A stretch of 64,000 nucleotides of DNA from a virus. The position numbers were made by a program, and so were the translations under genes. The notes below the pieces were generated by a model that ran no database searches, was not told the DNA's origin, and was given only the letters and a program-made list of their open reading frames with translations. Location: the IMG/VR virus record IMGVR_UViG_3300028883_000005, positions 18,576-82,575 of that record; one strand, given 5' to 3'. Positions 1 through 16,282 of the stretch are shown piece by piece (position 1 is the first letter of the stretch; every line of letters starts with the position of its first letter).

Positions 1-715
1 TGATGGCCTTCCTTTAGATGAACTAGATATGCCTCCAGCATATAGCGAAAAGTACAATCACACCCCCTGCTCTGCATGTAGAGATAAAAAAGATGGAAAT
101 TTCATACCTGGTATTTGGTATGTCAAAAGGACTTCTCCTAAAATAGATTATTCTAATCTGACTTCTACTTTGAAATCGTTTGAAGAAAGTTTTGGAGATA
201 ATATACGGATAATTAGTTATCCTATGAATACTGCTAATATAAGCGATGTAAAAAGAGATTTGGATCTTCTAGAGTATACAGAAGGGTTCGTTCCTGATGG
301 CATTGTTTTGGACTATGCAGATATTTTAGGACCTGAAGATTCTAGATTGGTAGGAAGAGATAGCATCAACCAAACTTGGAAGATGCTGAAAAACCTAGCT
401 CAAGAGAGAAACTCTTTAGTAATCACGGCAACACAAAGCAATAGAGGTAGCATGGATAGAAGGAGGGTTAAGCCTACGGATACTAGTGAGGACATTCGAA
501 AGCTAGCCCATGTGAACTTAATGGTATCTCTTAATCAAACTCCTAGGGAAAAGAGAAGAGGATTAATGAGACTAGGAGTATCCGTAGCTCGTGGTGTGGA
601 ATTTGACGAGCTACAAGAGGTGCTTGTAGTTCAGGAACTTTCAATTGGTCAGCCCTTTTTAGATTCTGAAGTGCCTGGCTTTTTAGAAGATGAAGGAGAA
701 AATCATGAAGATTAG
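1..715 (+). CDS. DnaB-like replicative helicase, C-terminal part (5'-truncated by window)
   Basis: Frame open from window start; SF4 helicase motifs GIVLDYADIL, VITATQSNR, DTSEDIRKLAHVN; CxxC (CSAC) near the truncated start. Confidence 0.85.
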   Translation, partial: DGLPLDELDMPPAYSEKYNHTPCSACRDKKDGNFIPGIWYVKRTSPKIDYSNLTSTLKSFEESFGDNIRIISYPMNTANISDVKRDLDLLEYTEGFVPDGIVLDYADILGPEDSRLVGRDSINQTWKMLKNLAQERNSLVITATQSNRGSMDRRRVKPTDTSEDIRKLAHVNLMVSLNQTPREKRRGLMRLGVSVARGVEFDELQEVLVVQELSIGQPFLDSEVPGFLEDEGENHED

Positions 716-1073
716 TGTATGCAAAATATTTGAGTTTCACGCCGCACATCACCTCCCTCATTACTCTGGCAAATGTAGAGAGGTTCATGGTCATTCCTAC
801 ACACTTGAGATTGAGATAAGTGGAGAGGTGGGCGCTTGGACTGGAATGATATGCGACTTCTCTGAGCTTAAAAAGAAAGTTGAGGGTGCTATTATTTTCC
901 ATTTAGATCACAAAGATCTGAATATACTGATGGAAAACCCCACCGCCGAAAAAACTGTGGAGCTTATTGTGAGTAGGAAAAATCAGTATGTTCCAGACGG
1001 TGCAGAGCTAGAAAGGGTTCGTCTTTACGAGACCCGCACAAGTTTTGCAGAGTGGAGGAGGGAACAACAATGA
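705..1073 (+). CDS. queD: 6-carboxy-5,6,7,8-tetrahydropterin synthase QueD
   Basis: FHAAHHL...CREVHGHSY (CxxxHGH), LDHKDLN, NPTAE, LYET motifs; start moved to ATG 705 after AGGAG. Confidence 0.93.
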   Translation: MKISVCKIFEFHAAHHLPHYSGKCREVHGHSYTLEIEISGEVGAWTGMICDFSELKKKVEGAIIFHLDHKDLNILMENPTAEKTVELIVSRKNQYVPDGAELERVRLYETRTSFAEWRREQQ

Positions 1074-1753
1074 ACAGAGGTAAAACAGACTTTTGCTCAG
1101 CTCCTTTATGGGAGGTTTTCACTTCTATAGACGGTGAAGTGAACAATATAGGTCAAGGGGTTTTGAGTAAATTCATAAGAGTAGCAGGATGCAATCTCCA
1201 CTGCTCTTGGTGTGACACTAAAATAACGCAAACGGTTCCTAAAGAAGCTTCTTGGGAAAACTCTGCAAGTATGATGAGATCTGGTATTATAGGCAGAGAC
1301 CACGTTCAGAAATACACCATCACAGGGGGCGAGCCGCTTCTTTACCCAGAGTGGGTTAGAGAAGTGGTGAACACTCTAGTAGCTCTGGGTAAGAGCGTGT
1401 CTGTAGAAACAAACGGTTCTAGAGTTCTAGTACCAGGATTAGACTGCTGCTGGGTGATAGACGATAAGCCGCCTTCTTCAGGTCATCTGGGTAGTTTTGT
1501 ATACAGCAATTTGTGTACGATGAGAGAAGGAAGAGACTGGATTAAAATTGTAATAGCAACACAAGAAGATTTAGAATGGGCTATCGAGGAGACTAAATAT
1601 ATAAGTAGCAGGATTGGTAAGGCAAACATCGCTTGGAGCTTATCTGAAACTTGTGAGGTTGAAGCTAAACATATCATTAGCGTTTTACTGGAAGAAAGCC
1701 TGCATTATGTTAGAATTAATGCCCAGCTTCATAAGTACTTAGGATTATTGTAA
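1070..1753 (+). CDS. queE: 7-carboxy-7-deazaguanine synthase QueE (radical SAM)
   Basis: EVFTSIDGE, FIRVAGCNLHCSWCDT, ITGGEP, VETNG, QLHK motifs; directly follows queD. Confidence 0.92.
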   Translation: MNRGKTDFCSAPLWEVFTSIDGEVNNIGQGVLSKFIRVAGCNLHCSWCDTKITQTVPKEASWENSASMMRSGIIGRDHVQKYTITGGEPLLYPEWVREVVNTLVALGKSVSVETNGSRVLVPGLDCCWVIDDKPPSSGHLGSFVYSNLCTMREGRDWIKIVIATQEDLEWAIEETKYISSRIGKANIAWSLSETCEVEAKHIISVLLEESLHYVRINAQLHKYLGLL

Positions 1754-1770
1754 ATAAAAATCTAAAGATT

Positions 1771-1803
1771 TATCTTGCAAACCGCCTAATTGCTTGTTAC
1801 ATT
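1771..1803 (+). promoter_or_regulatory. Promoter P1, TATC-TTGCAA-N17-TACATT with extended -10 TG
   Basis: Intergenic; same layout and spacing as three other sites (7429, 16298, 21665). Confidence 0.7.
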
Positions 1804-1816
1804 GTAAGTAACTTTT

Positions 1817-1880
1817 AGGAGGGCAATCTCTTCAGAGAAGAGTCGAGGCAGCAGAAATACAATCCTCATCGCCCTATCCT
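1817..1880 (+). ncRNA. Putative structured 5' leader (three-way junction)
   Basis: AGGA-GGGC pairs with GCCC-ua-UCCU, enclosing CUCUUC/GAAGAG and GAGG/CCUC stems; lies between P1 and the RBS; folded by eye. Confidence 0.4.
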
Positions 1881-1908
1881 TACTAACTTCATTACAAGGA
1901 GGAATATT

Positions 1909-2523
1909 ATGTTGAGCCCAGAATTCTGCAATGCAACATCCGTTCGGAAAGAGATTGGCGCGCTGAACAAGTGCGGCGTGCTGGCCGAAAAAGTGAAAGC
2001 TGTCGGAGTGGCCAAGAAGGAGTTGGTGGAGTCTTTCCTGAAGGCCGTGGAATCGGTTCCCGAGGGCACCGAGGAAGCCAAGAAGATCCCTGCTTCCGTC
2101 ATCAAGCTCTACAATGAAATCGTTGAAGGTGTTGATCCTTCGCCGGAAGAGCAGGAAAAGCTCAAGGCCGCCAAGACCAAGAAGAAGGACGCCAAGCCCC
2201 GCGGCCCCAGCAATGAAGCCAAAGCTCTGGAAATTTTCACCGAATCTTTCAAGGCCGGCCTGGACGACGCAGCAATCAAGGCCAAGATGACCGAGTACTT
2301 CAAACCGTACTATGAAGCTCGTGGAAAGGGGGATCAACCGGATTTCATCGAGAAGCGGGTGGGCATCTATACCAACATTGCCAAGAAGCAATACTTTGCC
2401 GCCCATCCCGACGAGGCTCCCAAAAAAGAGGAAAAGCCTCCGAAGAAGGAAACTGCCAAAAAGGATGCCGCCAAAGACGAGAAGGCCGCCACCGGCGAAG
2501 AGGAAGCGCCCACGGAGGGGTAG
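1909..2523 (+). CDS. Lys/Ala/Glu-rich hypothetical protein, probably highly expressed (possible DNA-binding/core protein)
   Basis: Strong RBS AAGGAGG, own promoter, GC3-rich codons like the capsid and SSB genes. Confidence 0.75.
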   Translation: MLSPEFCNATSVRKEIGALNKCGVLAEKVKAVGVAKKELVESFLKAVESVPEGTEEAKKIPASVIKLYNEIVEGVDPSPEEQEKLKAAKTKKKDAKPRGPSNEAKALEIFTESFKAGLDDAAIKAKMTEYFKPYYEARGKGDQPDFIEKRVGIYTNIAKKQYFAAHPDEAPKKEEKPPKKETAKKDAAKDEKAATGEEEAPTEG

Positions 2524-2524
2524 A

Positions 2525-3115
2525 ATGGACCGGAGCCTAACTGAGCAATATCTTCAGAAGGCTTTAACTGAGGGGTTGGGGCTTGATATTAAAGACCCCA
2601 ACCTCTCAGGAACTCCTGGGCGCATCGCTAAGATGTGGACCCAGGAGTTTTTCTCCTCTTTAGAGCATCCTGAAGGTTTCGACAATCTCACTTCCTTTCC
2701 TAATGATAGGGAGTATGATCAAATAATCCTATTAGATAAGATCCATTTCGTTTCCATGTGTTCCCATCACTTTCTGCCCTTCGCTGGTATAGCTTGGTTA
2801 GGTTATATACCTAAAGGGCAACTCGCTGGAGCTTCAAAGCCTTCACGCCTGATTAACTTTTACTCCAAGAAACCGCAGCTTCAAGAACACCTCTCTCATG
2901 AGATTATCGATTGTTTCAATGAAAAGATAGAACCTCAAGGATGCATTGTTGTAATGCGTGGTATCCATGGCTGCATGAGTAATCGAGGGGCCCTCCAGTA
3001 TAATGGAAGTGGTATGACAACCTCCGCAGTTAGCGGTGTTTTCAGAGATGACAGCAAGGCTAGGTCTGAGGTTATGGACCTAATAAAAATATCCTTAATG
3101 ATCCACGAATTGTAA
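2525..3115 (+). CDS. folE: GTP cyclohydrolase I FolE
   Basis: GTPGRIAKMW, SMCSHHFLPF, SK...R, QLQE, HGCMSNRG, TTS...GVF motifs; start moved to ATG 2525. Confidence 0.93.
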   Translation: MDRSLTEQYLQKALTEGLGLDIKDPNLSGTPGRIAKMWTQEFFSSLEHPEGFDNLTSFPNDREYDQIILLDKIHFVSMCSHHFLPFAGIAWLGYIPKGQLAGASKPSRLINFYSKKPQLQEHLSHEIIDCFNEKIEPQGCIVVMRGIHGCMSNRGALQYNGSGMTTSAVSGVFRDDSKARSEVMDLIKISLMIHEL

Positions 3116-3138
3116 TCCTTCCATCAGGGGGTCGAAGC

Positions 3139-3489
3139 ATGGATAATAAAATCTACGCTCGAATCATCATTAATTTTCAATTTGAAGCTTTACACTCTTG
3201 GCCGGGGTGTTCTCTTTTGGACGTAAGTTTCCTTAAGAACGCCCATCGCCATGTTTTTCATGTAGAGATGAAAAAATTGGTGATGCATGACGATCGAGAT
3301 ATAGAATTTATACACTTCAAAAGAGAGGTTTTGAGGTGGGTGAGAGAGAACTGGGAAGAAAAAGATCTAGAATCTAAATCCTGCGAAATGATCGCTACCC
3401 ATCTTCTTCTCTTATTTGAATGTGACTATGTAAAAGTAATGGAGGACGGAGAAAATGGAGCAGAAGTCTTCAAGGATCATAATAATTGA
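3139..3489 (+). CDS. Second QueD-like T-fold protein (DpdL-like, putative CDG decarboxylase)
   Basis: FEALHSW, LKNAHRHVF (LxxxHRHxF instead of CxxxHGH), HDDRDIEF, SCE, EDGENGA. Confidence 0.7.
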   Translation: MDNKIYARIIINFQFEALHSWPGCSLLDVSFLKNAHRHVFHVEMKKLVMHDDRDIEFIHFKREVLRWVRENWEEKDLESKSCEMIATHLLLLFECDYVKVMEDGENGAEVFKDHNN

Positions 3490-4825: not shown

Positions 4826-5850
4826 AAATTATACTTGTTCCTATAGAGCCTTTTGAAGAGAGATATTCTATCCAGTGGTCTCGTTGGTTCAAAGAGAGCA
4901 TTTCAAATCTAGATATACCATACATAGAAATCTGCCCTGAGCCTCTTAAATCGTATAGAGAGACAGGTGCCTTTTTGGATGTTGTAGGAACCAACTACTT
5001 CAAGGCTACCCAACTTCAGATGATTTGTGATCTGATAGATCGTGGTGAGATTGAGAGTGGAGATGTTTTCTTGTTTCACGATCTTTGGTTCCCTGGTATC
5101 GAAATGCTCGCTTATATTAGAGACGGCATGGGTATGGATTTCAAAATCACAGGCTGTCTTCATGCAGGAACCTGGGATCCTTGGGATTTTCTAAGCCGAA
5201 GAAACATGGGGAGGTGGGGCACTTTACTTGAAGAGTCGTGGTTTAAGTTTATAGATGCTGTTTTTGTAGCCACAGAATTTCACAAAGAGATGATTCAGTC
5301 ATACTTTGATAGCCCGATACCAAGAATCTACACTACTGGGTTTCCTATTAAAAATGAAGAAGAGCTACCAAATACTGGTAAAAATCAAGTAGTGTTCCCT
5401 CACCGTCTAGATAAAGAAAAAAATCCTGATAGATTTGACAAATTAGAAAAAGCTTTCACTTCAGAATACCCTCTACCTAAGGTGACCTTCCTTAAAACCA
5501 AAGAAGCATGTACTACAAAGAAAGAATATTATGAGGTGCTGGCTAACTCTGTAGTTTCTGTTTCTTTTGCGAGTCAAGAAACTTGGGGAATCGCAATGAT
5601 AGAGAGTGTGCTATCTGGTTGTATACCATTTGTTCCTAATGAGCTAAGTTATGGAGAATTGTACCCTAAAGAGTTCAGATACGACTATGATTTTTCAGAT
5701 GATCACTCTTATTTCCTTCTAGCAAAGAGGATCCATGAGGCTCTTAGGAACACCGAGTACCAAAACATGGTTGAGGATCTGGGTAAAAAATTTATCCTCA
5801 AAGGGTCTTTAGCTATACCTAGAATGATAGAAATTATTATGGATTTGTAA
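4822..5850 (+). CDS. GT-B (GT4-like) glycosyltransferase in DNA-modification cluster
   Basis: FPHRLDKEKNP, QETWGIAMIE...GCIP...LSYGEL; ATGA overlap with radical SAM gene. Confidence 0.82.
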   Translation: MKIILVPIEPFEERYSIQWSRWFKESISNLDIPYIEICPEPLKSYRETGAFLDVVGTNYFKATQLQMICDLIDRGEIESGDVFLFHDLWFPGIEMLAYIRDGMGMDFKITGCLHAGTWDPWDFLSRRNMGRWGTLLEESWFKFIDAVFVATEFHKEMIQSYFDSPIPRIYTTGFPIKNEEELPNTGKNQVVFPHRLDKEKNPDRFDKLEKAFTSEYPLPKVTFLKTKEACTTKKEYYEVLANSVVSVSFASQETWGIAMIESVLSGCIPFVPNELSYGELYPKEFRYDYDFSDDHSYFLLAKRIHEALRNTEYQNMVEDLGKKFILKGSLAIPRMIEIIMDL

Positions 5851-7428: not shown

Positions 7429-7461
7429 TATCGTTACATGCCTTATTTTTATTGCTATATT
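7429..7461 (+). promoter_or_regulatory. Promoter P2, TATC-GTTACA-N17-TATATT with extended -10 TG
   Basis: Same layout as P1, P3, P4; directly upstream of the TGT-like gene. Confidence 0.7.
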
Positions 7462-7493
7462 GTAGTTAAAACAAAGATTTAGAAGGATTAATA

Positions 7494-8471
7494 ATGGAAA
7501 TGACCTTGTTTGTAGATTCAGGTGCTCCCAGTCTTTATAATCAATTTATACGCCGAAACAAAGGCGGTACTTATATGGGAAGCTTTCTTGAAGATAGGAA
7601 AAACGATGACTTCAGCTGGATCCAAAGCAAGGATTTCCAAACCTACCGAAGGAACTATGCTCTTTTTATCAAGAAAAATCTTCAGTTTATTGATTATTAT
7701 GCAAATTTTGATGTGATTAATAATGCAGAAGCAACCTGGTCAAATCAGCAATACTACGAGTCTAAAGGATTGAAACCAATACCTGTTTGGCATTATGGAA
7801 CAGATATGAAGTGGCTGGAAATGTATTTGGAAAAAGGATATGACTATATCGCTATAGGGGGTCTGATACCTAACCCGCCTAGAATCTTGCTTCCTGCATT
7901 AGACTCTATATGGGGCTCTCTTCTCACAGACTCTTCAGGAATGCCTAAAGTAAAAGTTCACGGATTTGCTGTAACTTCTACGAGACTAATTGCCCGCTAC
8001 CCCTGGTTTAGTGTAGATTCCTCTTCTTGGGTAAAATTCGGACAATATGGAGTGATATGTGTCCCTCCTAAAAGAGGGGGAAAGTTTGATTATTCTACCA
8101 CAGCTCATAATATTTTTGTATCCACAAGATCGCCCTCCCAAGAAATTACAGGAAAGCACTATTACACACTGTCAGGCGCAGAGCAAGCAATGATTGATCA
8201 ATACTTGGACCTTAAAGGTCATGTGATGGGTAAATCAGAATTTAAAATGGTAGGTTCAGAATACGAACTTAAAGAAGATGAGGTTTTTGTCAGTGGAAGA
8301 AAGGGAGATGAGGAAAGAAGGGTGGAGATTATATTAGAGAGAGGCGTATGCAACGATTATAAGCTCAGGGACGAGCTTAATGTTCAATATTATATAGATT
8401 TGCAGAACAGTGTTCCGGAATGGCCTTGGGCTTTTCAAATTAATCAGAAGAAAGGATTCTTTGAAATATGA
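7494..8471 (+). CDS. tRNA-guanine-transglycosylase-fold protein (DpdA-like deazaguanine DNA insertion enzyme)
   Basis: LFVDSGA, FDVI, PIPVWH, YIAIGGL, KVHGFA, PWFSVDSSSW motifs; near queD/queE/folE. Confidence 0.75.
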   Translation: MEMTLFVDSGAPSLYNQFIRRNKGGTYMGSFLEDRKNDDFSWIQSKDFQTYRRNYALFIKKNLQFIDYYANFDVINNAEATWSNQQYYESKGLKPIPVWHYGTDMKWLEMYLEKGYDYIAIGGLIPNPPRILLPALDSIWGSLLTDSSGMPKVKVHGFAVTSTRLIARYPWFSVDSSSWVKFGQYGVICVPPKRGGKFDYSTTAHNIFVSTRSPSQEITGKHYYTLSGAEQAMIDQYLDLKGHVMGKSEFKMVGSEYELKEDEVFVSGRKGDEERRVEIILERGVCNDYKLRDELNVQYYIDLQNSVPEWPWAFQINQKKGFFEI

Positions 8472-8486
8472 AAAAGTATATCCTTT

Positions 8487-8858
8487 ATGGTGAAGAATAA
8501 TGAAAGGACACAGGTAATGACCGAGAGAAAGCCCAGAAAAATACCTGAAGAAGAAACTTGGTCGGAGGCTTATAATTGTCATACTTTTATCAAGTCTTCC
8601 ATTCCGGTAGATGTTAGTTGGGCATCCGTAGGGGGAGGCTACCAAATAAAAGTGTGTGGTCAGCTATGCTCTGAAAAACCTTCAGATGTTGAAGAGGGGA
8701 AGATTTTAGCTTTGCTCAAAGCTCGTCGTTTAGCTAAAGCTTCCCTAGATAACCTAAACAAAGAATTAGAAGGTCTGTATAGAAAAGGACCTAAAAGATA
8801 TATGGAGTTATATAATAAAATGCTCGAAGGAGAGATTAAATGGGAGAAGCAGAGATGA
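8487..8858 (+). CDS. Hypothetical protein
   Basis: ORF packed in operon. Confidence 0.65.
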   Translation: MVKNNERTQVMTERKPRKIPEEETWSEAYNCHTFIKSSIPVDVSWASVGGGYQIKVCGQLCSEKPSDVEEGKILALLKARRLAKASLDNLNKELEGLYRKGPKRYMELYNKMLEGEIKWEKQR

Positions 8859-9034
8859 AGTTATTCCTAGCGGGCAACTTCCCTCTGATGAGCAACATCG
8901 AGAAGGAAAGAGAGATGAAAGATTATGTTTTTTCCAAAGATGCTCCTTATAATCGCCTAGCCAGTTTTTTCTATACTAAAGGAGCAGCAAACTTGGTAGA
9001 GATAAGAAGTGAAGTTTTGGAAGAGACTAAATGA
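8855..9034 (+). CDS. 'FLAG...NRLxSF' mini-module A (59 aa)
   Basis: MKLFLAGN...NRLASFFY; ATGA overlap; paralogous to three other ORFs. Confidence 0.75.
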   Translation: MKLFLAGNFPLMSNIEKEREMKDYVFSKDAPYNRLASFFYTKGAANLVEIRSEVLEETK

Positions 9035-9237
9035 AAGTATTCTTCGCAGCGGTTGGCTACGAGCTAATGGACAGCTTTTTAAACGGAACAAAAGGGCAAC
9101 ATCGAAATATGCTCTTTTCATATTGGGAACTGTCAGGTAGTTCTGGATTTAAACAAAGAAAAATAAACTGGGAGAATATCACAAATGGAACTCAACAGAT
9201 ACGACCTTCAATGGTGCGTGAGGAGACTTCCAAGTAA
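9031..9237 (+). CDS. 'FLAG...' mini-module B (68 aa)
   Basis: MKVFFAAVG...RNMLFSYW; ATGA overlap with module A. Confidence 0.7.
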   Translation: MKVFFAAVGYELMDSFLNGTKGQHRNMLFSYWELSGSSGFKQRKINWENITNGTQQIRPSMVREETSK

Positions 9238-9874
9238 CCTACGAAAGTTAATGAAGAAAGAAGAAATCACAGTAGGTGGAGGGTTCATTAGGTCCTGTAT
9301 ATTTAATGAAAAGCCCAACGATATCGACTTGTTTGTCCCAGATAAAGATTGGGCTAAAGAGCTGGCTTTGTTCCTAAGTGAGTACACTCCTGGGCGTTTA
9401 GTGCATACTCCTAATGCCATCACTATCCGTGGCCCGCGCCCGCACGTTCAATTTATCACCAGATGGCTCTACGAAGAACCTCAAGATGTGATTCCTTCCT
9501 TCGACTTCACCCTTTGTCAAGCTATCTTCTGGTGGGATCACTATTGCGGAAAATGGAAGTCTCTGGTTTCAGACGAGTTTTATCCTGCTTTAGCGGCTAA
9601 GAGGCTGGAGTACACAAACCCAGACAGAAACGAGGATGCCGGAGGCAGCTTATTGAGGGTCCTTAAATACTACCAAAAAGGATTCCGCATCACTATACCT
9701 TCTTTCTCTGACGTAATGACCAGATTGATCCGAGATATCGATTTTGATGAAATTAATAGAAATGTGAACAACTTTCCTGGACAGACACGAGAAGAGCGAA
9801 TTAGTTGGATAATTAGAGGACTGCTCAGGGAGGTAGATCCTAACATTGACCCCGATCACATAGTAGGAGAATAA
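9185..9874 (+). CDS. Nucleotidyltransferase (poly(A) polymerase/CCA head-domain-like)
   Basis: GGGFIRS, NDIDLF, FDFTLCQ, RVLKYYQKGF. Confidence 0.75.
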   Translation: MELNRYDLQWCVRRLPSNLRKLMKKEEITVGGGFIRSCIFNEKPNDIDLFVPDKDWAKELALFLSEYTPGRLVHTPNAITIRGPRPHVQFITRWLYEEPQDVIPSFDFTLCQAIFWWDHYCGKWKSLVSDEFYPALAAKRLEYTNPDRNEDAGGSLLRVLKYYQKGFRITIPSFSDVMTRLIRDIDFDEINRNVNNFPGQTREERISWIIRGLLREVDPNIDPDHIVGE

Positions 9875-9875
9875 A

Positions 9876-10184
9876 ATGAGCGACGGCAGGTTCGAAGGCG
9901 ATAGTATTGAAGAGATTGTTTGTTTAGTAGGTCAACTAAACGACGAGATTTTTAATCAAACTGGCCGTGATCATGGTTGTGCTTATAGACCGTTGGTAGC
10001 TCATTTTGACGGTGACGATTGTGCGTCAACCGCCTCAGTTTACTTAATCGACATTTGTATCTGGAACTCCGATTGTAACAATAGAGGATTCGATGAGAGC
10101 TTTAATGTATACCAGCCCCTCAAGGAGTTTCTCATTCAAGAAATAAATAGAGTAGTATCTGAATTAAAAGAAATCAAACTTTAA
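9876..10184 (+). CDS. Hypothetical protein
   Basis: RBS AGGAG; operon packing. Confidence 0.7.
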   Translation: MSDGRFEGDSIEEIVCLVGQLNDEIFNQTGRDHGCAYRPLVAHFDGDDCASTASVYLIDICIWNSDCNNRGFDESFNVYQPLKEFLIQEINRVVSELKEIKL

Positions 10185-10201
10185 ATCTAGGGAGAATAAA
10201 A

Positions 10202-11221
10202 ATGATTATGCAAAAGAAAGAGTTCCTTAAAGTGATGCAACTTCTAAAGCCTGGGCTAGCTAAGAAGGACATCATCGAAGAGTTTGTCCATTACCTTTTC
10301 ACAGGAGATGATGTGATTACATTTAATGATGAAATTTGCATCTCCCACCCCTTCAAAACAGATTTCAAATGCTCCTGCCGTGCTGAAGAGCTTTTCAAAA
10401 CGGTAAACGGGATCAAAGAGGAAACTTTGGAGGTTGGAATAGCAGAAGCCGGAAACTGCATCGAAATCAAATCTGCAGGCACACGAGCTCGACTTGCTGT
10501 GTCTTCCGAAGATAAGGCTTCGCAGCTAATCTCTGTACTCAACTTGGAAGAGGTGTGTAAAAACATGACTCCTCTTCCTAAAGACTTTGTCCGCGCTCTG
10601 TACCTTTGCATGTTCTCTGCCTCTAAGGACATGACTAAAGGTATATACACTTGTGTAAAAGTAGATTCAGATTCTGTTTACAGTTCTGACGGAGTGAGGA
10701 TTAGTAAGTATAACTTAGAAGAGCATACAGACTTGTCCACTCTAATACCTGCCAGAAATATTGAGCATTTAGTTCGTTTTCCAGTGATAGAGTTTCGCCT
10801 TACAGACAGCTGGTGTCATTTTAGAACTGAAGAAGGCGTGGTGTTTAGTACTAGGGTGATGGAGGGCGAGTACCCCTCTCTTGATCAGTATTTTACTATT
10901 GAGGGAAAGAGAGTGAGGCTTCCTTCAGAGATAAAATCTCTGGTGTCCAGTGTTTCTTTCATGTCTGATGATAAGGTTATCAAAGACAAAACGGTCACTA
11001 TGGTAATAAGTAGTGGCCAGATAACCTGTAAGGCAGAAAAGAAAGACATAGGTATGGTAGAAAGAGACTTCGATTTTGAATATGCACAAGAAGGGTTTGA
11101 GATTCAGATTAATCCTATATTCCTAAACGAAGTCTTGGAAAAAGCTACTATTATGAGAGTGAACAAAAATGCAGCTATGTTCACTTCGGGGACCTTTAAC
11201 CACATTATTTCTTTGCAATAA
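10202..11221 (+). CDS. DNA sliding clamp (Pol III beta-like)
   Basis: 339 aa; SSDGVRI, RVMEGEYP, INPIFLNEVL segments resemble beta clamp; replication context. Confidence 0.75.
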   Translation: MIMQKKEFLKVMQLLKPGLAKKDIIEEFVHYLFTGDDVITFNDEICISHPFKTDFKCSCRAEELFKTVNGIKEETLEVGIAEAGNCIEIKSAGTRARLAVSSEDKASQLISVLNLEEVCKNMTPLPKDFVRALYLCMFSASKDMTKGIYTCVKVDSDSVYSSDGVRISKYNLEEHTDLSTLIPARNIEHLVRFPVIEFRLTDSWCHFRTEEGVVFSTRVMEGEYPSLDQYFTIEGKRVRLPSEIKSLVSSVSFMSDDKVIKDKTVTMVISSGQITCKAEKKDIGMVERDFDFEYAQEGFEIQINPIFLNEVLEKATIMRVNKNAAMFTSGTFNHIISLQ

Positions 11222-11259
11222 TGTGCTGAAGCTTATGCAAAAGGACAAAAATCCTTCGT

Positions 11260-11313
11260 GCTCTAAGCGCGAATTCTGCACGAACTTTATGTAGTCAATG
11301 CATTAGTATACAT
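11260..11313 (+). repeat. Dispersed motif copy 1 (GCTCTAAGC..GAATTCTGCA-N16-AATGC)
   Basis: Intergenic; matches copies at 30684, 35799 and (reverse) 26312. Confidence 0.8.
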
Positions 11314-11398
11314 TTGAAAGCTGCCAGCTATGAAATCTTTAATTAGTGGAAAAAGAGGCGGAGGGAATTAAGAAAAGGATAAAAGGGAGGTTCAAAGA

Positions 11399-11893
11399 AT
11401 GGTCGATTTTAAAAGAATACTTAGAGAAAGAGGTCTAAAAGCAGAGGCAGATTTCGCTCCTAAATCTCACAGACCAGACTCTCAAGGGGTATGTGTACAA
11501 TGCGGCTCCGTTTTGGATTTGAGTGATGCCCCTTCAGAATGCCCCGGACCTTACGAGTTTAAATGCACAGGAATCCGAACCAGCTGCATATATCCTGCCT
11601 TGGTGCATTCCCGCATAGCAGATCGTAAATTTGTAGAATTAGATTTAGAACTTAGATTCCTGATGGACGAGTGGTGGATTAATATCTTAAATGGGGTTAC
11701 GGGATTTGAGAGCTGCTCTGTAAAGGATTTTACAACAGGAATGTACCAAGGCAGGAAGGGATGGACCGCCTGTGCAGGAACTACTGGGAGATGGGATTCT
11801 CTTTTTGTTCCTTTTAGCGAGTGCAAAAAGATTTTAAAATGGGTTGAGGGGGTGCTTAAACGAATAAACGGAGATGAGGATGAGGAAAAATGA
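11399..11893 (+). CDS. Hypothetical protein (Cys-containing)
   Basis: RBS GGAGG; ATGA overlap with next gene. Confidence 0.65.
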   Translation: MVDFKRILRERGLKAEADFAPKSHRPDSQGVCVQCGSVLDLSDAPSECPGPYEFKCTGIRTSCIYPALVHSRIADRKFVELDLELRFLMDEWWINILNGVTGFESCSVKDFTTGMYQGRKGWTACAGTTGRWDSLFVPFSECKKILKWVEGVLKRINGDEDEEK

Positions 11894-12324
11894 AAGTTTT
11901 CCTGGCAGGAGTTCCCGCAGGCAATCAAGCTGTTAGGGAGCATCACTTAAAAGCGATGGGTGCCAATAATCGCCTAACTACCTTTTACTATTTGAGGCAG
12001 GCAAAAATAACTATGAAAAAATATAAAGGTCCAGGTAAGGTGGTTCATTGCAAACGGGAACAATTTGATGTTTATATAGGTAGAACAAATACCATGCATC
12101 ATTACGGAAACCCCTTTGTAGTGGGCACTCACGGAGATGCTTTTAAATGTGTATCTAATTATAGAAGATGGCTAACTACAAATGCATACCCACACTTAGA
12201 ACCAGAGAGGAAAGCCTGGATACTATCTAGGGTCAAAACCCTCAAAAACAAAAGGCTGGGCTGCTTCTGTACTAAGCCGCCCTGTCACGGATTTATTCTT
12301 TTAGAGTTGGCGGAGAAGTCATAA
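11890..12324 (+). CDS. 'FLAG...' mini-module C fused to DUF4326-like domain
   Basis: N-term MKVFLAGV...NNRLTTFYY; C-term VVHCK..DVYIGR..YGNPF..LGCFC..PCHG. Confidence 0.8.
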   Translation: MKVFLAGVPAGNQAVREHHLKAMGANNRLTTFYYLRQAKITMKKYKGPGKVVHCKREQFDVYIGRTNTMHHYGNPFVVGTHGDAFKCVSNYRRWLTTNAYPHLEPERKAWILSRVKTLKNKRLGCFCTKPPCHGFILLELAEKS

Positions 12325-15008
12325 TGGCACTTAAAGGTTTTTTCCAAATAGAATCTACTGAACCTAGAAGGAATGCTAATAAAGAGCTTTTGGATAAAAG
12401 ATATAACCATCCTGGCGATCCGGATTGCTCTAGCTGTGGATTAGATAAAAAAGGATGCAAAAGGCCCAGGATACCTGTAACAGGAAATGGTAGAAGAAAC
12501 ATTCTAGGGATAGCAGAAGCTCCTGGGGCCACCGAAGACACACTAGGGAAGAATTTAGTGGGGGAGGCTGGTCAGTTTCTGGAAAAAAGTCTTAAACCTC
12601 TTGGGATTGATCTTCATAGAGACCTTTACTTAATAAATTCTGTAAATTGCCGTCCTCCTGAGAATAGAAAGCCTACAGATCATGAGTGCCTGTGTTGTCG
12701 TCCTTTATTGCTTAAAACCATCGAAGAGATAAAACCAGATCATATATGGTTATTTGGAGGAACTTCGGTAAGTACTTACATTAGAGATAGATTCAAAAAC
12801 ACAACAATCAGCAGATGGGTAAATTTACCCTTCCCTGACCCTGAAAATGGAGCTTGGGTTACTGCTCAATATCATCCTTCTTTTGTGATGAGAGGAAAAA
12901 ACGATAATCTCAGAGCTATAAACCAGATATATCTCAAAAAAGCAGTAGGCCGTCTATCTTGGAATCCTTACGAGTTTCCTGACTTTGACAGTCAGGTTAC
13001 TATTTTATTAGAATTTAAAAAAATAATCTTCCATCTTAAAAGGATACTTAGAACTAAGCCTTCGATAACTATTGATTATGAATCCACAGGTGTGAAGCCA
13101 TATAAGATTGGTCATAAGATCTATTGTGTAAGTATAGATGATGGAGATCAAAGCTATGTGATTCCTTTGCAAAGGCCTGGGTATTGGAAAGAGGAAGAAT
13201 GGTCAGAAATTCATCGTTTATATGTAGAAATTTTGGAAGATCCTAAAATATTAAAAACAGCTCAAGGTAGAAATTTCGAGGACTCCTGGTCATCTGTTGT
13301 TTTAGGTGCAGATGTTAAAGGTTGGGATTGGTGCACTATGACAGCCTCACATCTTATAGATAGCAGAGAGAAATTCACAGGTCTGAAATTTCAAGCTTTC
13401 TTAAGATTTGGAATAACAGGTTATGAGGAAGAGATTGCACCATATCTGAAGTCGGATAAAGGAGAGGAATTTAACAATATTCATAATGCCCCTCCCGAAA
13501 AGCTACATCACTATTGTGGACTAGATACAGTAAATACCAGAGAGCTGAAAAAATGGCAAAAATCCTTTTTTGATAGGCACCCAAAACTCGAAGCTGCCAG
13601 ACAATTCACGATGGATGGTTTGGAAGCTCTAATGAGTGTGCAAAATGAAGGAATCGTAGCAGACAGGGCTTATTACGACGAGCAAAATGCTTTTCTAGGG
13701 GATGAGATAGAAAAATTAACATTACAGATTTATCAGTCTAAGGAGGCAGAAAAGTTTAAAAAGAGAACAGGAAAGTCCTTTAACTATAAATCTTCTCAAG
13801 ACTTACAAATTCTGTTTTTTGATATTTTAGGGTATACACCAAAAAAGTTCACCAATAAAGATGAAACCAATGCATCGGTAGATGCTGAAGTTGTGAGTTC
13901 TATTAATTCACCTATAGCTAAAAAAATTCTTCGTGTAAAGAAGCTCTACAAAGTAAAAAACACCTACTTGGCACAATTCTTCAGGGAAATTACTGAAGAG
14001 GGCAAGATACACCCTGTTCAGAATCTTCATATAGCTACCACACATAGAGGATCTCAAGATCATCCTAATTTTCAAAACATACCAGTTCGAGATGAGGAGT
14101 CTAAAAAGGTGTGCAGATCTGGTATCGTTGCTTCTTTAGACCCTGAAGAGCCTGTTAGGCTAGGAGAAAAAGATTATGGGTCTCAAGAAGTTAGGATAAT
14201 TGCTTGTTACTCTGAGGACCCTGTTTTAATAGATTATATTAATGATCCTACTACGAACATGCATCGAGATGAGGCGGCGGCCTTATTTATCCTACCTGAA
14301 GAAAGAGTAAGCAAAGATATCAGATTTTATGCCAAAAACTGTTGGGTGTTCCCTCAATTTTATAAAAGCTGGTATGGAAGTTGTGCTAAGGATTTACAAA
14401 AGAACGTTATCATTCCTAATTTAAAAACAGCAGACGGTGAAAAGATACAGGACCACCTTAAGTCTAAAGGAATTTATACAGAGCAGTCTTTCGAGAATCA
14501 TTGTAAAAGGATGGAGAGTGCTTTCTGGGACAAATACAAAGGTGTAAAGAAATGGCAAGATAAAACAATTAAAAAATATCTAGAGCAGGGGTACGTGGGG
14601 ACTTTCTTTGGTCATAGAAGAACAGGTTTCTTGTCCCCTAACGAGATTGTGAATAGCCCTATTCAGGGCACAGCATTCCACTGTTTGCTTTGGACGTTAA
14701 AGAAAGTTAAAGATAGAATTAAGGATTTAGGCTTCCGTAGCCGACCTAACAATCAAATACATGACTCCATTAAAAGCAAAATATATGTTGAAGAGCAAAA
14801 CGAATATATCCAAATGGTAAAAACAATTGCCGAAGATGAAATCAGAGAGCAAAATGGTTGGTTAATTGTACCACTACTATTAGAAATAGAGTTATGTCCT
14901 ATAGGAGGAAACTGGTATCAGAAAGAGGAAGTGTTTTTTGAAGGCGGCACATGGGTAAGTAAAAACAAGGACGGTAGCATTAAGAACGTATACGATGAAA
15001 ATTTCTAA
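12324..15008 (+). CDS. Family A DNA polymerase with N-terminal family-4 uracil-DNA glycosylase domain (SPO1-like)
   Basis: UDG: CxxC, AEAPG..ED, VGEAG, NCRP, YHPS; exo DYEST; pol: PNFQNIP, DYGSQEVR, RFYAK...FPQFY, NSPIQG, QIHDS. Confidence 0.93.
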   Translation: MALKGFFQIESTEPRRNANKELLDKRYNHPGDPDCSSCGLDKKGCKRPRIPVTGNGRRNILGIAEAPGATEDTLGKNLVGEAGQFLEKSLKPLGIDLHRDLYLINSVNCRPPENRKPTDHECLCCRPLLLKTIEEIKPDHIWLFGGTSVSTYIRDRFKNTTISRWVNLPFPDPENGAWVTAQYHPSFVMRGKNDNLRAINQIYLKKAVGRLSWNPYEFPDFDSQVTILLEFKKIIFHLKRILRTKPSITIDYESTGVKPYKIGHKIYCVSIDDGDQSYVIPLQRPGYWKEEEWSEIHRLYVEILEDPKILKTAQGRNFEDSWSSVVLGADVKGWDWCTMTASHLIDSREKFTGLKFQAFLRFGITGYEEEIAPYLKSDKGEEFNNIHNAPPEKLHHYCGLDTVNTRELKKWQKSFFDRHPKLEAARQFTMDGLEALMSVQNEGIVADRAYYDEQNAFLGDEIEKLTLQIYQSKEAEKFKKRTGKSFNYKSSQDLQILFFDILGYTPKKFTNKDETNASVDAEVVSSINSPIAKKILRVKKLYKVKNTYLAQFFREITEEGKIHPVQNLHIATTHRGSQDHPNFQNIPVRDEESKKVCRSGIVASLDPEEPVRLGEKDYGSQEVRIIACYSEDPVLIDYINDPTTNMHRDEAAALFILPEERVSKDIRFYAKNCWVFPQFYKSWYGSCAKDLQKNVIIPNLKTADGEKIQDHLKSKGIYTEQSFENHCKRMESAFWDKYKGVKKWQDKTIKKYLEQGYVGTFFGHRRTGFLSPNEIVNSPIQGTAFHCLLWTLKKVKDRIKDLGFRSRPNNQIHDSIKSKIYVEEQNEYIQMVKTIAEDEIREQNGWLIVPLLLEIELCPIGGNWYQKEEVFFEGGTWVSKNKDGSIKNVYDENF

Positions 15009-15288
15009 GATGATAATCATAGTAGTAACGCTTAGGGAGGAAGACTTTCTAGATAAGGAGCACACCCTCAAGGTTTGGGAAGCGATAAATAAGAGACTGC
15101 CTGAAGTTCCTTGGGAAAGATTTTGGGATCAAAGCAGGATTATAACTGAGTCTATTTTTGAAATTCCTGGCGAGAGGTATACTATACAAATTCCTATGAG
15201 ATGTTTGTTATTTAAAAAGATAAATTGGACTTGGAAACCAGAATGGAAAAAGAGGAAAGAACTCCTACTAAGGAAAATAAAATGGTAA
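14995..15288 (+). CDS. Hypothetical protein
   Basis: Overlapping operon packing. Confidence 0.55.
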   Translation: MKISKMIIIVVTLREEDFLDKEHTLKVWEAINKRLPEVPWERFWDQSRIITESIFEIPGERYTIQIPMRCLLFKKINWTWKPEWKKRKELLLRKIKW

Positions 15289-15536
15289 AGAATGTACCAA
15301 ACCACCCTCATCCTCCCAGAGTTCCTAAACCTCCTAAACCTAAATATCATTTTGGTAGAAGGGCAAAGAGCAAAGATGAGAAGATGTTAGGTTTGCTTAT
15401 TCATGATCTTTGCGTTCTTTCCTCCAGAGTAGATCAAGGTGTTCTATCTTCAGAGATTATTGAGGAAGAAGTAGAACGATATGTAGAGGCTTTTAAAAAT
15501 AGGATGATGGGAAATGAATCTGTTTCTGGCGGGTAA
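15282..15536 (+). CDS. Hypothetical protein with Pro-rich N-terminus
   Basis: Start moved to 15282 after AAGGA; operon packing. Confidence 0.55.
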   Translation: MVKNVPNHPHPPRVPKPPKPKYHFGRRAKSKDEKMLGLLIHDLCVLSSRVDQGVLSSEIIEEEVERYVEAFKNRMMGNESVSGG

Positions 15537-15714
15537 TCCTGGTCATGGCAAAGCAGGAACTTACAGAGAGGAATATTTGATAAACAATAAATGTAACAGA
15601 TTGATTAGTTACTTTTGGTTTGGTGAAGGTAAGGATTTTAATAAATATTTTGAGAGGTGGAAAGATGCCAAAGAAGATACTATTCACAGACACAGAGACT
15701 ACAGGTGTAGATGA
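15514..15714 (+). CDS. 'FLAG...' mini-module D (66 aa)
   Basis: MNLFLAGN...NRLISYFW; paralogous to modules A-C. Confidence 0.72.
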   Translation: MNLFLAGNPGHGKAGTYREEYLINNKCNRLISYFWFGEGKDFNKYFERWKDAKEDTIHRHRDYRCR

Positions 15715-16282
15715 GAAAGATCAGGATGGGTACACACTTCTAGCTCATGAAGTTCACTCTATTATAGAGCTTTCAGGCATTATAGACATAGATGGTAAAA
15801 TGGTGGACAAATTTCAACTCTATGCCAGGCCTAAAGAGGGCGATCCTGTAAGCGCAGAAGCTTTGAATAAAAATGGAAGAACCAAAGAAGAAATAGCCTC
15901 TTTCCCTCCGCAGGTCGAGATGTACAAAAGATTTATTGAGATTTTAGGGAAATGGGTAGACCCTATGGATAAAGAAGATAAATTATGGTTTGTAGCATTC
16001 GGGCCCGGAAGGGGGGCAGGGTTTGATAACGAATTCTTAAGGAGTCTATTTGCCGATCAGGGAGATGTGTATTTCGGATCTTGGTTTTGGGTTCCTTATA
16101 TTGATATTATGCAACTGGCAGGCATTGTTTTGATGGAAAGTGGAGGAAGAGAGCTCATGCCTAATATGAAATTAGCATCTTTGGCTTATCAATTAGGCAT
16201 ACAAACCAAAGAGGAAAACTTTCACGACGGCCTGTATGATAGTAGAATTATGAGGATGATTTATTATAAATTGATGAGCTAA
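15665..16282 (+). CDS. DEDDh 3'-5' exonuclease (DnaQ/epsilon-like)
   Basis: FTDTETTG, AGFDNEFL, FHDGLYD. Confidence 0.88.
   Translation: MPKKILFTDTETTGVDEKDQDGYTLLAHEVHSIIELSGIIDIDGKMVDKFQLYARPKEGDPVSAEALNKNGRTKEEIASFPPQVEMYKRFIEILGKWVDPMDKEDKLWFVAFGPGRGAGFDNEFLRSLFADQGDVYFGSWFWVPYIDIMQLAGIVLMESGGRELMPNMKLASLAYQLGIQTKEENFHDGLYDSRIMRMIYYKLMS

Follow-up and report, generated by a model that had tools for sequence, protein, structure and literature searches.

This study revealed that the DpdA-like 7-deazaguanine DNA transglycosylase of an uncultured phage is probably a naturally split TIM-barrel enzyme that is completed in trans by a small module, and that several forms of the holoenzyme are likely. 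The analysis was conducted on a 64,000-nucleotide stretch of the phage genome, hereafter the window, the relevant features of which are listed in Table 1. Barrel strands 3-8, a C-terminal subdomain and all of the three catalytic-type aspartates would come from a 325-aa core. The β1-α1-β2-α2 piece would come from a separate protein of ~60 aa, which would close the barrel by slotting between the S-V-D residues 173-175 and residues 3-7 of the core. With four paralogous quarters (types A-D), each conserved in related phages, a single catalytic core could yield several forms of the holoenzyme. These forms may differ in DNA context; alternatively, the modules may tether the core to a fusion partner, which is DUF4326 here and UDG-PolA or QueD in relatives. 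The docking of module 1 is predicted by a structural model, and we infer that all four modules dock to the core and that the holoenzymes differ as a result.

Table 1. Features of the window considered in this study, in window coordinates
Feature	Position	Strand	Basis
7-deazaguanine base synthesis genes (context)	690..3115	+	QueD, QueE, FolE
QueD	690-1073	+	PF01242, E 9.5e-31
QueE	1052-1753	+	radical SAM match
FolE	2312-3115	+	PF01227, E 1.3e-48
Weak match to a sigma-70-like consensus, ahead of the DpdA core	7433..7461	+	9 of 12, with TG
DpdA-like 7-deazaguanine DNA transglycosylase core, 325 aa	7494..8471	+	PHROG 887, AF2 model, VIA-align
Module 1 (type A), 59 aa, free-standing, predicted β1-α1-β2-α2 quarter-barrel	8855..9034	+	family profile, E 2.5e-10
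Module 2 (type B), 68 aa, most diverged copy	9031..9237	+	motif match; profile scores weak
Module 3 (type C) fused to DUF4326, 144 aa	11890..12324	+	family profile, E 9.7e-10
Module 3 part, residues ~1-39	11890-12006	+	family profile
DUF4326 part, residues 51-139	~12040-12306	+	PF14216, E 9.8e-20
Module 4 (type D), 66 aa	15514..15714	+	family profile, E 5.6e-11

The DpdA core and its missing N-terminal quarter

The core matched PHROG 887, 'queuine tRNA-ribosyltransferase', at E 6.6e-36 over residues 47-211, and tblastn with the core retrieved 186 phage records annotated as queuine tRNA-ribosyltransferase. None of these 186 records spans at least 80% of the core, and we therefore know of no isolate with this form. 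In Pfam-A at E ≤ 1, GUN4_N (E 0.089) was the sole family matched, with no superfamily match, and the fused relatives P0082, P0044, P0251, P0342 and P0360 had no Pfam match at E ≤ 0.01. The DpdA subfamily of the window lies outside the Pfam models. In practice, both parts escape gene callers and Pfam: the core lacks a Pfam match, and the modules, of 45-90 aa, are unannotated. The three active-site aspartates expected of TGT/DpdA enzymes (acid/base, base recognition, nucleophile) are present in the core. D8 (in D-S-G-A), D73 and D175 are invariant across 94 aligned sequences and presumably correspond to Asp95, Asp130 and Asp256 of the bacterial DpdA structure 7UI4, judging from motif order and the start of the alignment (1 = 88). 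The zinc motif CxCx2Cx22H is absent from the core, which has two cysteines in its 325 residues and no CxCxxC.

The preliminary description had placed the start of this TGT-like gene almost directly at LFVDSGA, behind an in-frame stop at 7467. Both points were confirmed: the product begins M-E-M-T-L-F-V-D-S-G-A, and a TAA at 7467-7469 lies in frame with the DpdA ORF. No module was found upstream of the core in any frame, all four module matches of the whole genome lying downstream. The N-terminus that the preliminary description gave for phage homologues is real in three cultured-phage DpdAs, which begin M-x-(V/I)-Y-(I/M/L)-A-(G/A) ... (R/I)LES(Y/W)HY, about 15-20 residues before (V/I)FLDSGAFSA. 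The gene had also been credited with its own promoter. This claim is weak because the region contains fewer sigma-70-like matches than its shuffles (14 versus a shuffle mean of 23.2), and the consensus match upstream of the core is no evidence of promoter function.

The AF2 model of the core alone (pLDDT 94.3, pTM 0.89) contains only six barrel strands, at residues 6-7, 68-70, 98-101, 118-122, 154-157 and 173-174. With VIA-align, core residues 1..309 were superposed on residues 88..409 of 7UI4 (Z 13.2, rmsd 3.1, 215 aligned) and the core on residues 95..363 of the Z. mobilis TGT (Z about 12.7); human QTRT1 gave Z 13.1, and TGTs gave Z about 12.5-13.1. Strand 3 is the point from which the core aligns with each of the solved relatives. 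The alignment of the N-fused P0082, another relative, begins at strand 1, covering residues 4..410 of 7UI4 (Z 19.0, rmsd 3.2, 267 aligned) and 40..365 of the TGT, and its first 49 residues are modelled as strand-helix-strand-helix. According to these models, the core comprises barrel strands 3-8 and the C-terminal subdomain without β1-α1-β2-α2, and not a complete (βα)8 barrel in one chain. Foldseek searches with the core model gave no match at E ≤ 0.001 (best 4.7e-3). In the PDB, P0082 had no match by sequence, and a profile search gave only 7ui4_A, at E 0.063. The core is folded confidently by AF2 on its own, so the model as such does not call for a partner.

Among 123 DpdA-like proteins, 15 were matched over residues 1 to ~50 by a profile of 91 free-standing modules (E<1e-3; best E 1.5e-16). 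This evidence is not circular because the profile was built from free-standing modules alone, and it supports homology of the mini-ORFs to the missing DpdA quarter. Aligning the modules to full-length homologues, as the preliminary description had proposed, thus placed them at the N-termini of DpdA-like proteins; neither a core modelled as a full barrel nor modules unrelated to such N-termini was seen.

The four modules and their relatives

The six frames of the window were scanned with the motif M(K/N)(V/L)F(L/F)A(G/A)-x18-25-N(R/M)Lx(S/T)(F/Y)(F/Y/W), which had been proposed as common to four ORFs. Exactly four matches were found, at 8855, 9031, 11890 and 15514, all of them on the + strand, versus none in 200 mononucleotide shuffles. 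Their spacers are 25, 18, 19 and 20 residues long, and either half-motif by itself likewise occurs only four times in the window. All four ORFs are intact, start with ATG and follow a purine-rich stretch. The starts of 8855, 9031 and 11890 overlap the stops of ORFs 8487-8858, 8855-9034 and 11399-11893, respectively, and the four module ORFs are translationally coupled. At their other ends, module 2 overlaps a nucleotidyltransferase-like gene (9185-9874), the stop of the module 3 ORF and the UDG-PolA start overlap, and module 4 overlaps a DnaQ-like exonuclease ORF (15620-16282). A nucleotide alignment of the four modules showed no conserved flanks, and the conservation of the modules is therefore at the protein level.

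The E-values of modules 1, 3 and 4 in Table 1 are those of the iteration-3 family-wide profile. The reported fusion of one module to a DUF4326-like domain was borne out by PF14216 (71.5 bits, cut-off 25); PMC9503650 proposes that DUF4326 is a phosphatase acting on ribose phosphates. For module 2, the E-value was 1.1e-6 with a seed that included this copy and rose to 6.6e-4 and 0.71 at iterations 2 and 3, and module 2 lacks a near-invariant arginine found in 86 of 91 modules. The motif, together with the scores of type B orthologues in loci L004, L008 and L009 (1.3e-5 to 8.7e-5), suggests that it is a weak member of the family. The modules differ in the β1/α1 loop and in the segment after β2, whereas the two strands at the predicted interface are common to all.

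The search with the module family yielded 181 ORF matches at iE<1e-3 in 83 loci and the window, and none in reversed-sequence decoys. All 181 share the strand of DpdA, although 18,237 of the 29,722 ORFs lie on the opposite strand. Among 1.84 billion proteins, 732 representative module clusters were found at E ≤ 1e-3, mostly of 45-90 aa; 139 of the best 150 representatives are of at most 100 aa. A scan of viral contigs with a single protein found no relatives, whereas an alignment-based scan found them. The closest related proteins are P0005 (78%) and P0006 (79-80%). Among the loci examined, the closest relatives retain four syntenic orthologous types A-D. Beyond the type B loci named above, orthologues were found for type A in L004, L005, L008, L009, L011 and L013, and for types C (free-standing, ~63 aa) and D in L004, L005, L008 and L011; type B and D orthologues terminate as free ORFs (51-74 aa). 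Identity between orthologues is only about 35-47%, and each module has orthologues in the corresponding position in phages with a DpdA of only 52-62% identity. Given that relatives keep the syntenic types and that the family spans 732 clusters, the modules do not appear to be debris. A FastTree tree, in which 33 of 75 forks are open, was relied on only for the clade of the window, which has a support of 98, and for the point that changes were numerous.

In relatives, the module is free, fused to the N-terminus or C-terminus of DpdA, or fused to QueD, DUF4326 or UDG-PolA. N-fused DpdAs occur in 22-23 of 84 loci, the fused and short classes having been assigned by a noisy script (L003 and L014 were reassigned by eye, and the class of L027, L032 and L033 varied). 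The module is C-fused in L012 and L014/P0044, where a tryptophan replaces the initiator methionine; in the sister locus L015, the equivalent module is a separate ORF beginning right after the DpdA frame. P0374 consists of a module and QueD (PF01242, E 3.6e-31), module-DUF4326 fusions recur in P0125 (79% identity) and P0126 (58%), and in L081 a type-B-like module is fused to a 912-aa UDG-PolA.

Some arrangements argue against simple completion. Free modules are also kept in 17 of the 22 loci whose DpdA carries its own module. P0251, P0275, P0336 and P0360 have 2-4 tandem modules ahead of a single core, whose gap has room for just one of them. An N-terminal extension of 74-88 aa is present on DpdA in the closest relatives, L004-L007, which still retain types A-D. 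The 68-88-aa N-terminal extension of P0008, P0014, P0016, P0020 and P0021 might be a decayed module, but it could be aligned with the module over its first 9 residues only (hhalign probability 11%). Of the 61 short-class loci, 14 had no free module in the fetched DNA, two of which are really fused. When 10 whole records were searched again, 7 had a module match and 3 had none, these three being 53, 35 and 76% complete.

Predicted complex and alternative explanations

Complex modelling of the core with a module, another proposal of the preliminary description, was run for module 1 and placed it in the barrel gap, between the last and the first barrel strands of the core. The complex scored ipSAE 0.86, 0.87 and 0.86, the best of three controls reaching 0.00, although a fold already solved as a single chain may reach such a score when divided in two simply because the predictor has learned it. 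Of 80 solved complexes, 58 reach the mark applied, as do 2 of 110 mismatched pairs; these counts are rough because our own alignments were used. The runs share at least 95% of their contacts, with a partner pLDDT of at least 86, and module residues 32-38 pair with core residues 3-7 and module residues 3-4 with core residues 173-175. Close cousins of a genuine partner pass this test as well, and the four modules are therefore indistinguishable by it. Mean information was 1.57 at the 37 interface positions of the module versus 0.74 at the 22 others (one-sided Mann-Whitney p 0.003). R17 and E18 are conserved (64 and 77 of 91, respectively) but lie outside the predicted interface. The earlier proposal that the start of the barrel is supplied in trans is thus upheld in part: the missing quarter, the homology and the modelled docking of module 1 speak for it, and the free modules kept beside complete enzymes speak against it.

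We consider it unlikely, but still worth weighing, that the short DpdA is active alone or with its own insertion over the gap, and that the mini-proteins, stemming from DpdA N-termini, form a family of their own with another job. They could regulate DpdA or inhibit it competitively, act as decoys for a host TGT/Dpd enzyme or be small DNA-binding replication factors. The confident fold of the core alone, the free modules beside N-fused enzymes, the tandem enzymes and the position of R17-E18 are all in line with this, as is the location of the window modules among replication genes and not next to DpdA. However, the core model has six strands and begins at strand 3 of solved relatives, the module is fused in some relatives to the N-terminus and in others to the C-terminus of the core, its conserved residues are the predicted core contacts, and the complex scored far above the best control. 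It is less probable again that the modules are chiefly docking tags that tether DUF4326, UDG-PolA or QueD to the core and would couple DNA modification to replication or base synthesis, the free modules being competitors or placeholders. The fusions in the window, P0125, P0126, L081 and P0374 and the overlap of module 3 with PolA would fit such a role, but fusions to other proteins are rare, 139 of the best 150 representatives being no longer than 100 aa, and type C is free-standing in four loci.

Two further explanations have very little probability. The retention of exactly four types in the window clade, each predicted to be β-α-β-α, could mean that four quarter-barrels, 4x (βα)2, assemble into a (βα)8 hetero-tetramer apart from DpdA. 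Yet the copy number per locus varies from 0 to 6 in relatives, the fusions in the window clade join the DpdA core and not other modules, and the modules lack the strands that bear the catalytic aspartates. To the same slight degree, the mini-ORFs might be decaying duplicated starts of DpdA, or 9031 and 15514 the 5' parts of downstream genes reached by a +1 frameshift, since both overlap the next gene in the +1 frame and frame changes break some modules in relatives. Against this stand the intact and coupled state of all four ORFs, the orthologues kept in place in phages with distant DpdAs, the conservation at the protein level without conserved nucleotide flanks, and the free type B and D orthologues. 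A split enzyme completed by a module is the reading that we retain.

Comparison with known systems and genome context

Single-chain phage DpdAs of the DpdA1 type were compared from vB_Ade_ART (Achromobacter), MMDA13 (Sphingomonas), vB_VpaS_AL-2 (Vibrio), Pseudomonas phage JG054 and Burkholderia phage BcepGomr. They share PHROG 887 with the core, are 33-41% identical to it by tblastn over residues ~50-245, and have the D-S-G-A, H-G-F and Y-P-W-x-S-x-D-S-S-S-W motifs; as in the window, they adjoin FolE/QueD and sliding-clamp and polymerase genes. These proteins, of 306-325 aa, carry β1-α1-β2-α2 in cis, whereas the window core lacks this piece, which is encoded four times elsewhere. The core also has ~29 extra residues after D-S-G-A and a longer, different C-terminal part.

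The best structural match of both the core and the N-fused relative is the bacterial DpdA of Salmonella Montevideo (7UI4). PMC10164549 describes this enzyme of the Dpd restriction-modification system as a monomeric complete barrel with a CxCx2Cx22H zinc site that needs DpdB and ATP. In this enzyme, the β1/α1 insertion helps to build the DNA-binding surface (PMC10164549). The regions of the solved structure that match the variable segments of the modules belong to this surface and flank the active site. Residues 1-87 of 7UI4 have no equivalent in the window core, which also lacks the zinc motif.

TGTs, including the eukaryotic QTRT1-QTRT2 heterodimer, have the fold and base-exchange chemistry of the window core. 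The eukaryotic TGT needs a second subunit, QTRT2, which is itself a full-length paralogue and joins a catalytic barrel that is already complete; the second subunit in the window would be a quarter of the barrel itself. TIM barrels have been complemented from fragments in the laboratory, as with HisF halves and PRAI fragments, a (βα)n fragment completing the barrel non-covalently, and the quarter-barrel hypothesis proposes (βα)2 as the ancestral barrel unit. Whereas those cases are engineered or inferred, the window would represent a natural and widespread 2+6 split with alternative quarters. If so, a single family would combine free, N-fused and C-fused forms, the last being circularly permuted, and would offer a living example of a (βα)2 unit that folds and assembles independently.

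DpdA replaces guanine by 7-deazaguanines, which shields phage DNA from restriction and CRISPR. In Type I restriction-modification, HsdS is a swappable specificity subunit on one catalytic core. The window resembles this by analogy, having one core and several alternative small subunits; HsdS, however, is a separate DNA-recognition protein, whereas the modules would be a piece of the catalytic fold. A tentative extension is that swappable quarter-barrels compete for the DpdA gap and retarget the enzyme to another DNA context or couple it to polymerase or base synthesis. Retargeting might proceed through the differing β1/α1 and β2/α2 loops or through the fusion partners. DpdA would then be a combinatorial enzyme of natural origin, its TIM barrel being completed non-covalently. 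With an exchangeable first quarter, a phage could broaden or alter its pattern of modification with no need for a second copy of the enzyme, and sequence-targeted DNA base exchange could be engineered along the same lines. Slippery (AG)n tracts are present in modules of relatives, some of which are broken by frame changes, and in some relatives they could switch single subunits on and off. The repeat tracts of the window modules are 7, 4, 0 and 6 nt long, and the slippery-repeat idea does not hold here.

In the literature, we found no description of a split DpdA with free quarter modules. Short or split DpdAs are not described in the available parts of PMC10516641, PMC10164549 and the 2026 preprint 10.64898/2026.04.15.718813, although the supplementary DpdA alignments of the first two might show short forms.

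The whole genome, of 82,575 bp, has direct terminal repeats and is rated 100% complete; it contains one DpdA, the four modules and no further copies of either. QueC (PF06508), which the preQ0-type pathway of phage DpdA1 requires for preQ0, had no match in the 82.6-kb genome, although FolE and QueD were detected. The window modules are scattered among clamp, polymerase, exonuclease and clamp-loader genes, away from DpdA.

A DpdA core without the first quarter of its barrel

Sequence, fold and catalytic residues place the 325-aa core in the DpdA/tRNA-guanine transglycosylase (TGT) superfamily. The core matches PHROG 887 (E 6.6e-36) and resembles 186 phage records that carry a queuine/DpdA transglycosylase annotation; identity stays below 60% throughout, and no record reaches 80% coverage of the core. 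D8, D73 and D175 do not vary across 94 relatives. It is unlike other superfamily members in having no complete one-chain barrel, no zinc site and no match to any Pfam model. As the preliminary description stated, the gene is barred from upstream extension, starting five residues before D-S-G-A with a TAA at 7467. The promoter also assigned to it was not borne out, being just a 9-of-12 consensus match, and shuffles of that region yield more matches of this kind than the region itself. Short forms are the rule in this subfamily, 95 of the 120 best homologues starting less than 30 residues before D-S-G-A.

The AF2 model of the core (pLDDT 94.3) contains only six barrel strands. Its alignment to the bacterial DpdA structure 7UI4 begins at residue 88 (Z 13.2, rmsd 3.1, 215 aligned) and that to Z. 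mobilis TGT at residue 95, so that both start at the strand bearing the acid/base Asp, which is Asp95 in 7UI4 (PMC10164549). For the N-terminally fused relative P0082, whose residues 1-49 form strand-helix-strand-helix, alignment begins at residue 4 of 7UI4 (Z 19.0) and residue 40 of TGT. This comparison shows that the window enzyme lacks beta1-alpha1-beta2-alpha2.

Four paralogous genes encoding the missing quarter

Four conserved paralogous genes encode the quarter that the core is without, and in relatives quarter and core occur joined in either order. The motif M(K/N)(V/L)F(L/F)A(G/A)-x18-25-N(R/M)Lx(S/T)(F/Y)(F/Y/W), earlier reported for four dispersed ORFs, recovered exactly those four in six frames, all on the + strand, and nothing in 200 shuffles. 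All four begin with ATG, three of them on the preceding ORF's stop codon, and each has a purine-rich stretch 5' of it. Nucleotide comparison revealed no likeness in their flanks or coding DNA, so the likeness resides in the protein. The window corresponds to positions 18,576-82,575 of a virus record 82,575 bp long, which has terminal repeats and is rated complete; over its full length the record contains four modules and a single DpdA.

Features of the window
Feature	Position	Description
DpdA core	7494-8471	325 aa
Type A (module 1)	8855	A-G-N-F-P ... N-R-L-A-S-F-F-Y
Type B (module 2)	9031	F-A-A-V-G ... N-x-L-F-S-Y, tail F-x-F-R-K
Type C (module 3)	11890	F-A-G-V-P-A-G ... I-T-L-K-x-Y-K
Type D (module 4)	15514	L-A-G-N-P-G-H-G-K-A-G ... 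S-Y-F-W
ORF between DpdA and module 1	8487-8858	123 aa; stop overlaps module 1 start
UDG-PolA	12324-15008	894 aa; fusion of family-4-type uracil-DNA glycosylase, weak exonuclease match and family A polymerase
Second QueD-like ORF	3139-3489	after QueD, QueE, FolE
Radical SAM protein	3455-4825	456 aa; downstream of QueD, QueE, FolE
385-aa ORF	4693-5850	downstream of QueD, QueE, FolE

An iterated profile search of the window and 83 related loci yielded 181 module-bearing ORFs (iE<1e-3) and no match among reversed decoys; the DpdA strand carries every one of the 181, though the other strand holds most ORFs of the pool. A second profile, built from 91 free-standing modules and containing no DpdA, found 732 representative proteins (E<=1e-3) in a set of 1.84 billion; of the top 150, 139 are no longer than 100 aa. 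It also matched residues 1 to about 50 in 15 of 123 DpdA-like proteins (E<1e-3). The N-terminal strand motif described for phage homologues is present in three cultured-phage DpdAs, 62-68 residues before D-S-G-A; these match the 91-module profile weakly (0.007 and 0.03, one missed). By profile, module 2 belongs only marginally to the family.

The described fusion of one mini-ORF to a DUF4326-like domain was confirmed for type C (E 9.8e-20) and recurs in the relatives P0125 (79% identity) and P0126 (58%), while type C stands free in the loci L004, L005, L008 and L011. A type-B-like module lies in frame at the N-terminus of a 912-aa UDG-PolA (L081:10450-13206). In P0374, residues 1-54 form a module followed by a QueD/PTPS domain (PF01242, E 3.6e-31), a domain pairing that ties the module to synthesis of the 7-deazaguanine base. 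The module lies at the DpdA C-terminus in L012 and L014/P0044, with Trp where the start Met would be; in their sister L015 it is a separate ORF directly after DpdA. Two, three or four tandem modules precede a single core in P0251, P0275, P0336 and P0360, where just one can fill the barrel gap. The distribution of fused and short states on the tree requires at least 17 changes, five of them being forced by well-supported branches.

The window's clade (support 98) comprises 24 loci: 22 short, two C-fused and none N-fused. About 29 extra residues directly follow D-S-G-A in this clade (window 7530-7620, core residues about 12-42), reading P-S-L-Y-N ... Y-M-G-S-F-L-x-D-R-K and absent from N-fused forms; as the C-fused P0044 has the insert too, it does not replace the module. 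The nearest relatives (L004, L005-7, L008, L009 and L011; DpdA identity 52-62%) carry four orthologous module types in unchanged order. An N-terminal extension of 68-88 aa is found on their DpdAs (L004:~9755-10000, L005:~9797-10000; P0008, P0014, P0016, P0020, P0021), and these phages still retain types A-D. The extension has only M-K-(L/I)-Y in common with the module (hhalign probability 11%) and may be a decayed cis module.

Completion in trans and its alternatives

The proposed modelling of the core with a module was carried out for module 1, which the model places in the gap with ipSAE 0.86, 0.87 and 0.86 (best of three controls, 0.00). Of 80 solved complexes 58 attain the ipSAE mark, as do 2 of 110 mismatched pairs; these counts apply only roughly because self-made alignments were used. 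The runs have at least 95% of contacts in common, with partner pLDDT >=86. In the model, strand 2 of the module (residues 32-38) pairs with the first strand of the core (residues 3-7), and strand 1 of the module (residues 3-4) with the last barrel strand of the core (residues 173-175), so that the strands run 8-1-2-3 as in a closed barrel. As single-chain TGT and DpdA structures are already solved, the docking may reflect fold likeness rather than affinity of this pair, and the model cannot tell the four paralogues apart. Module positions conserved family-wide are those of the interface (mean information 1.57 vs 0.74, p 0.003); the conserved R17-E18 lies outside it.

Module 1 closes the barrel in the model, and modules 2-4 would do likewise. 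Since the beta1/alpha1 loop and the beta2/alpha2 segment vary between modules, the holoenzymes may differ in DNA preference or tethered partner. In 7UI4, the beta1/alpha1 region belongs to the DNA-binding surface and the beta2/alpha2 region flanks the active site (PMC10164549).

The observation of the preliminary description was confirmed and its split-barrel interpretation found partial support: the missing quarter and the genes encoding it stood. In the AF2 model the core folds confidently alone. We regard completion in trans by a module as somewhat favoured, and the full reading of swappable quarter-barrel subunits as tentative. Counting against trans-completion, besides the fold of the core, are the tandem modules, the extension on the nearest relatives' DpdAs and the marginal standing of module 2. 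No module was found in three of ten records searched again, these three being rated just 35-76% complete. Of 22 loci whose enzyme is complete, 17 also keep free modules. Mini-proteins with an independent small-protein role, to be weighed against the conserved interface, are an unlikely alternative. That the modules are docking tags, a reading to be set beside their various fusions, is improbable. Less credible still are a separate barrel built from the four modules, whose number matches its four quarters, and an origin of the mini-ORFs as remnants or frameshift fusions, the latter to be judged alongside frame-broken modules in relatives and the intact, conserved types.

The arrangement is a variant of a known enzyme kind, its closest described systems being single-chain phage DpdA1 and bacterial DpdA 7UI4; a split DpdA was not described in the article texts on DpdA that were searched. 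By analogy, the arrangement comes nearest to engineered TIM-barrel fragment complementation and to the swappable HsdS subunits.

Genomic setting and repeat tracts

QueD, QueE and FolE lie 4-7 kb upstream of the core, at the head of a stretch (690-5850) that also includes the three ORFs following them. QueC (PF06508) was not found anywhere in the genome, and the inserted base is therefore probably not preQ0. The modules interleave with a nucleotidyltransferase-like gene, a clamp-like gene, UDG-PolA, a DnaQ-like exonuclease and a clamp-loader subunit. UDG-PolA matches PF03167 (E 7.3e-20), PF00476 (E 5.2e-51) and, weakly, the 3'-5' exonuclease model PF01612 (E 4.4e-4); the module-DUF4326 gene ends on its start codon (12324). 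The 123-aa ORF matched nothing in Pfam or PHROG at E<0.01.

A slippery-repeat switch does not apply in the window, whose own module tracts are <=7 nt. In relatives, (AG)5-type tracts sit on the module's conserved R-E-R-E codons (L034:9875, L053:374, L025:2688, L064:9714 and 9822, L048:9813). Tracts >=9 nt were found in 16 of 112 free modules, compared with 20 of 5000 random 150-nt windows, and the reading frame shifts exactly at the tract in five of six frame-broken modules examined. The pattern suggests on/off switching by slipped strands, or else heterogeneity in the assembly.
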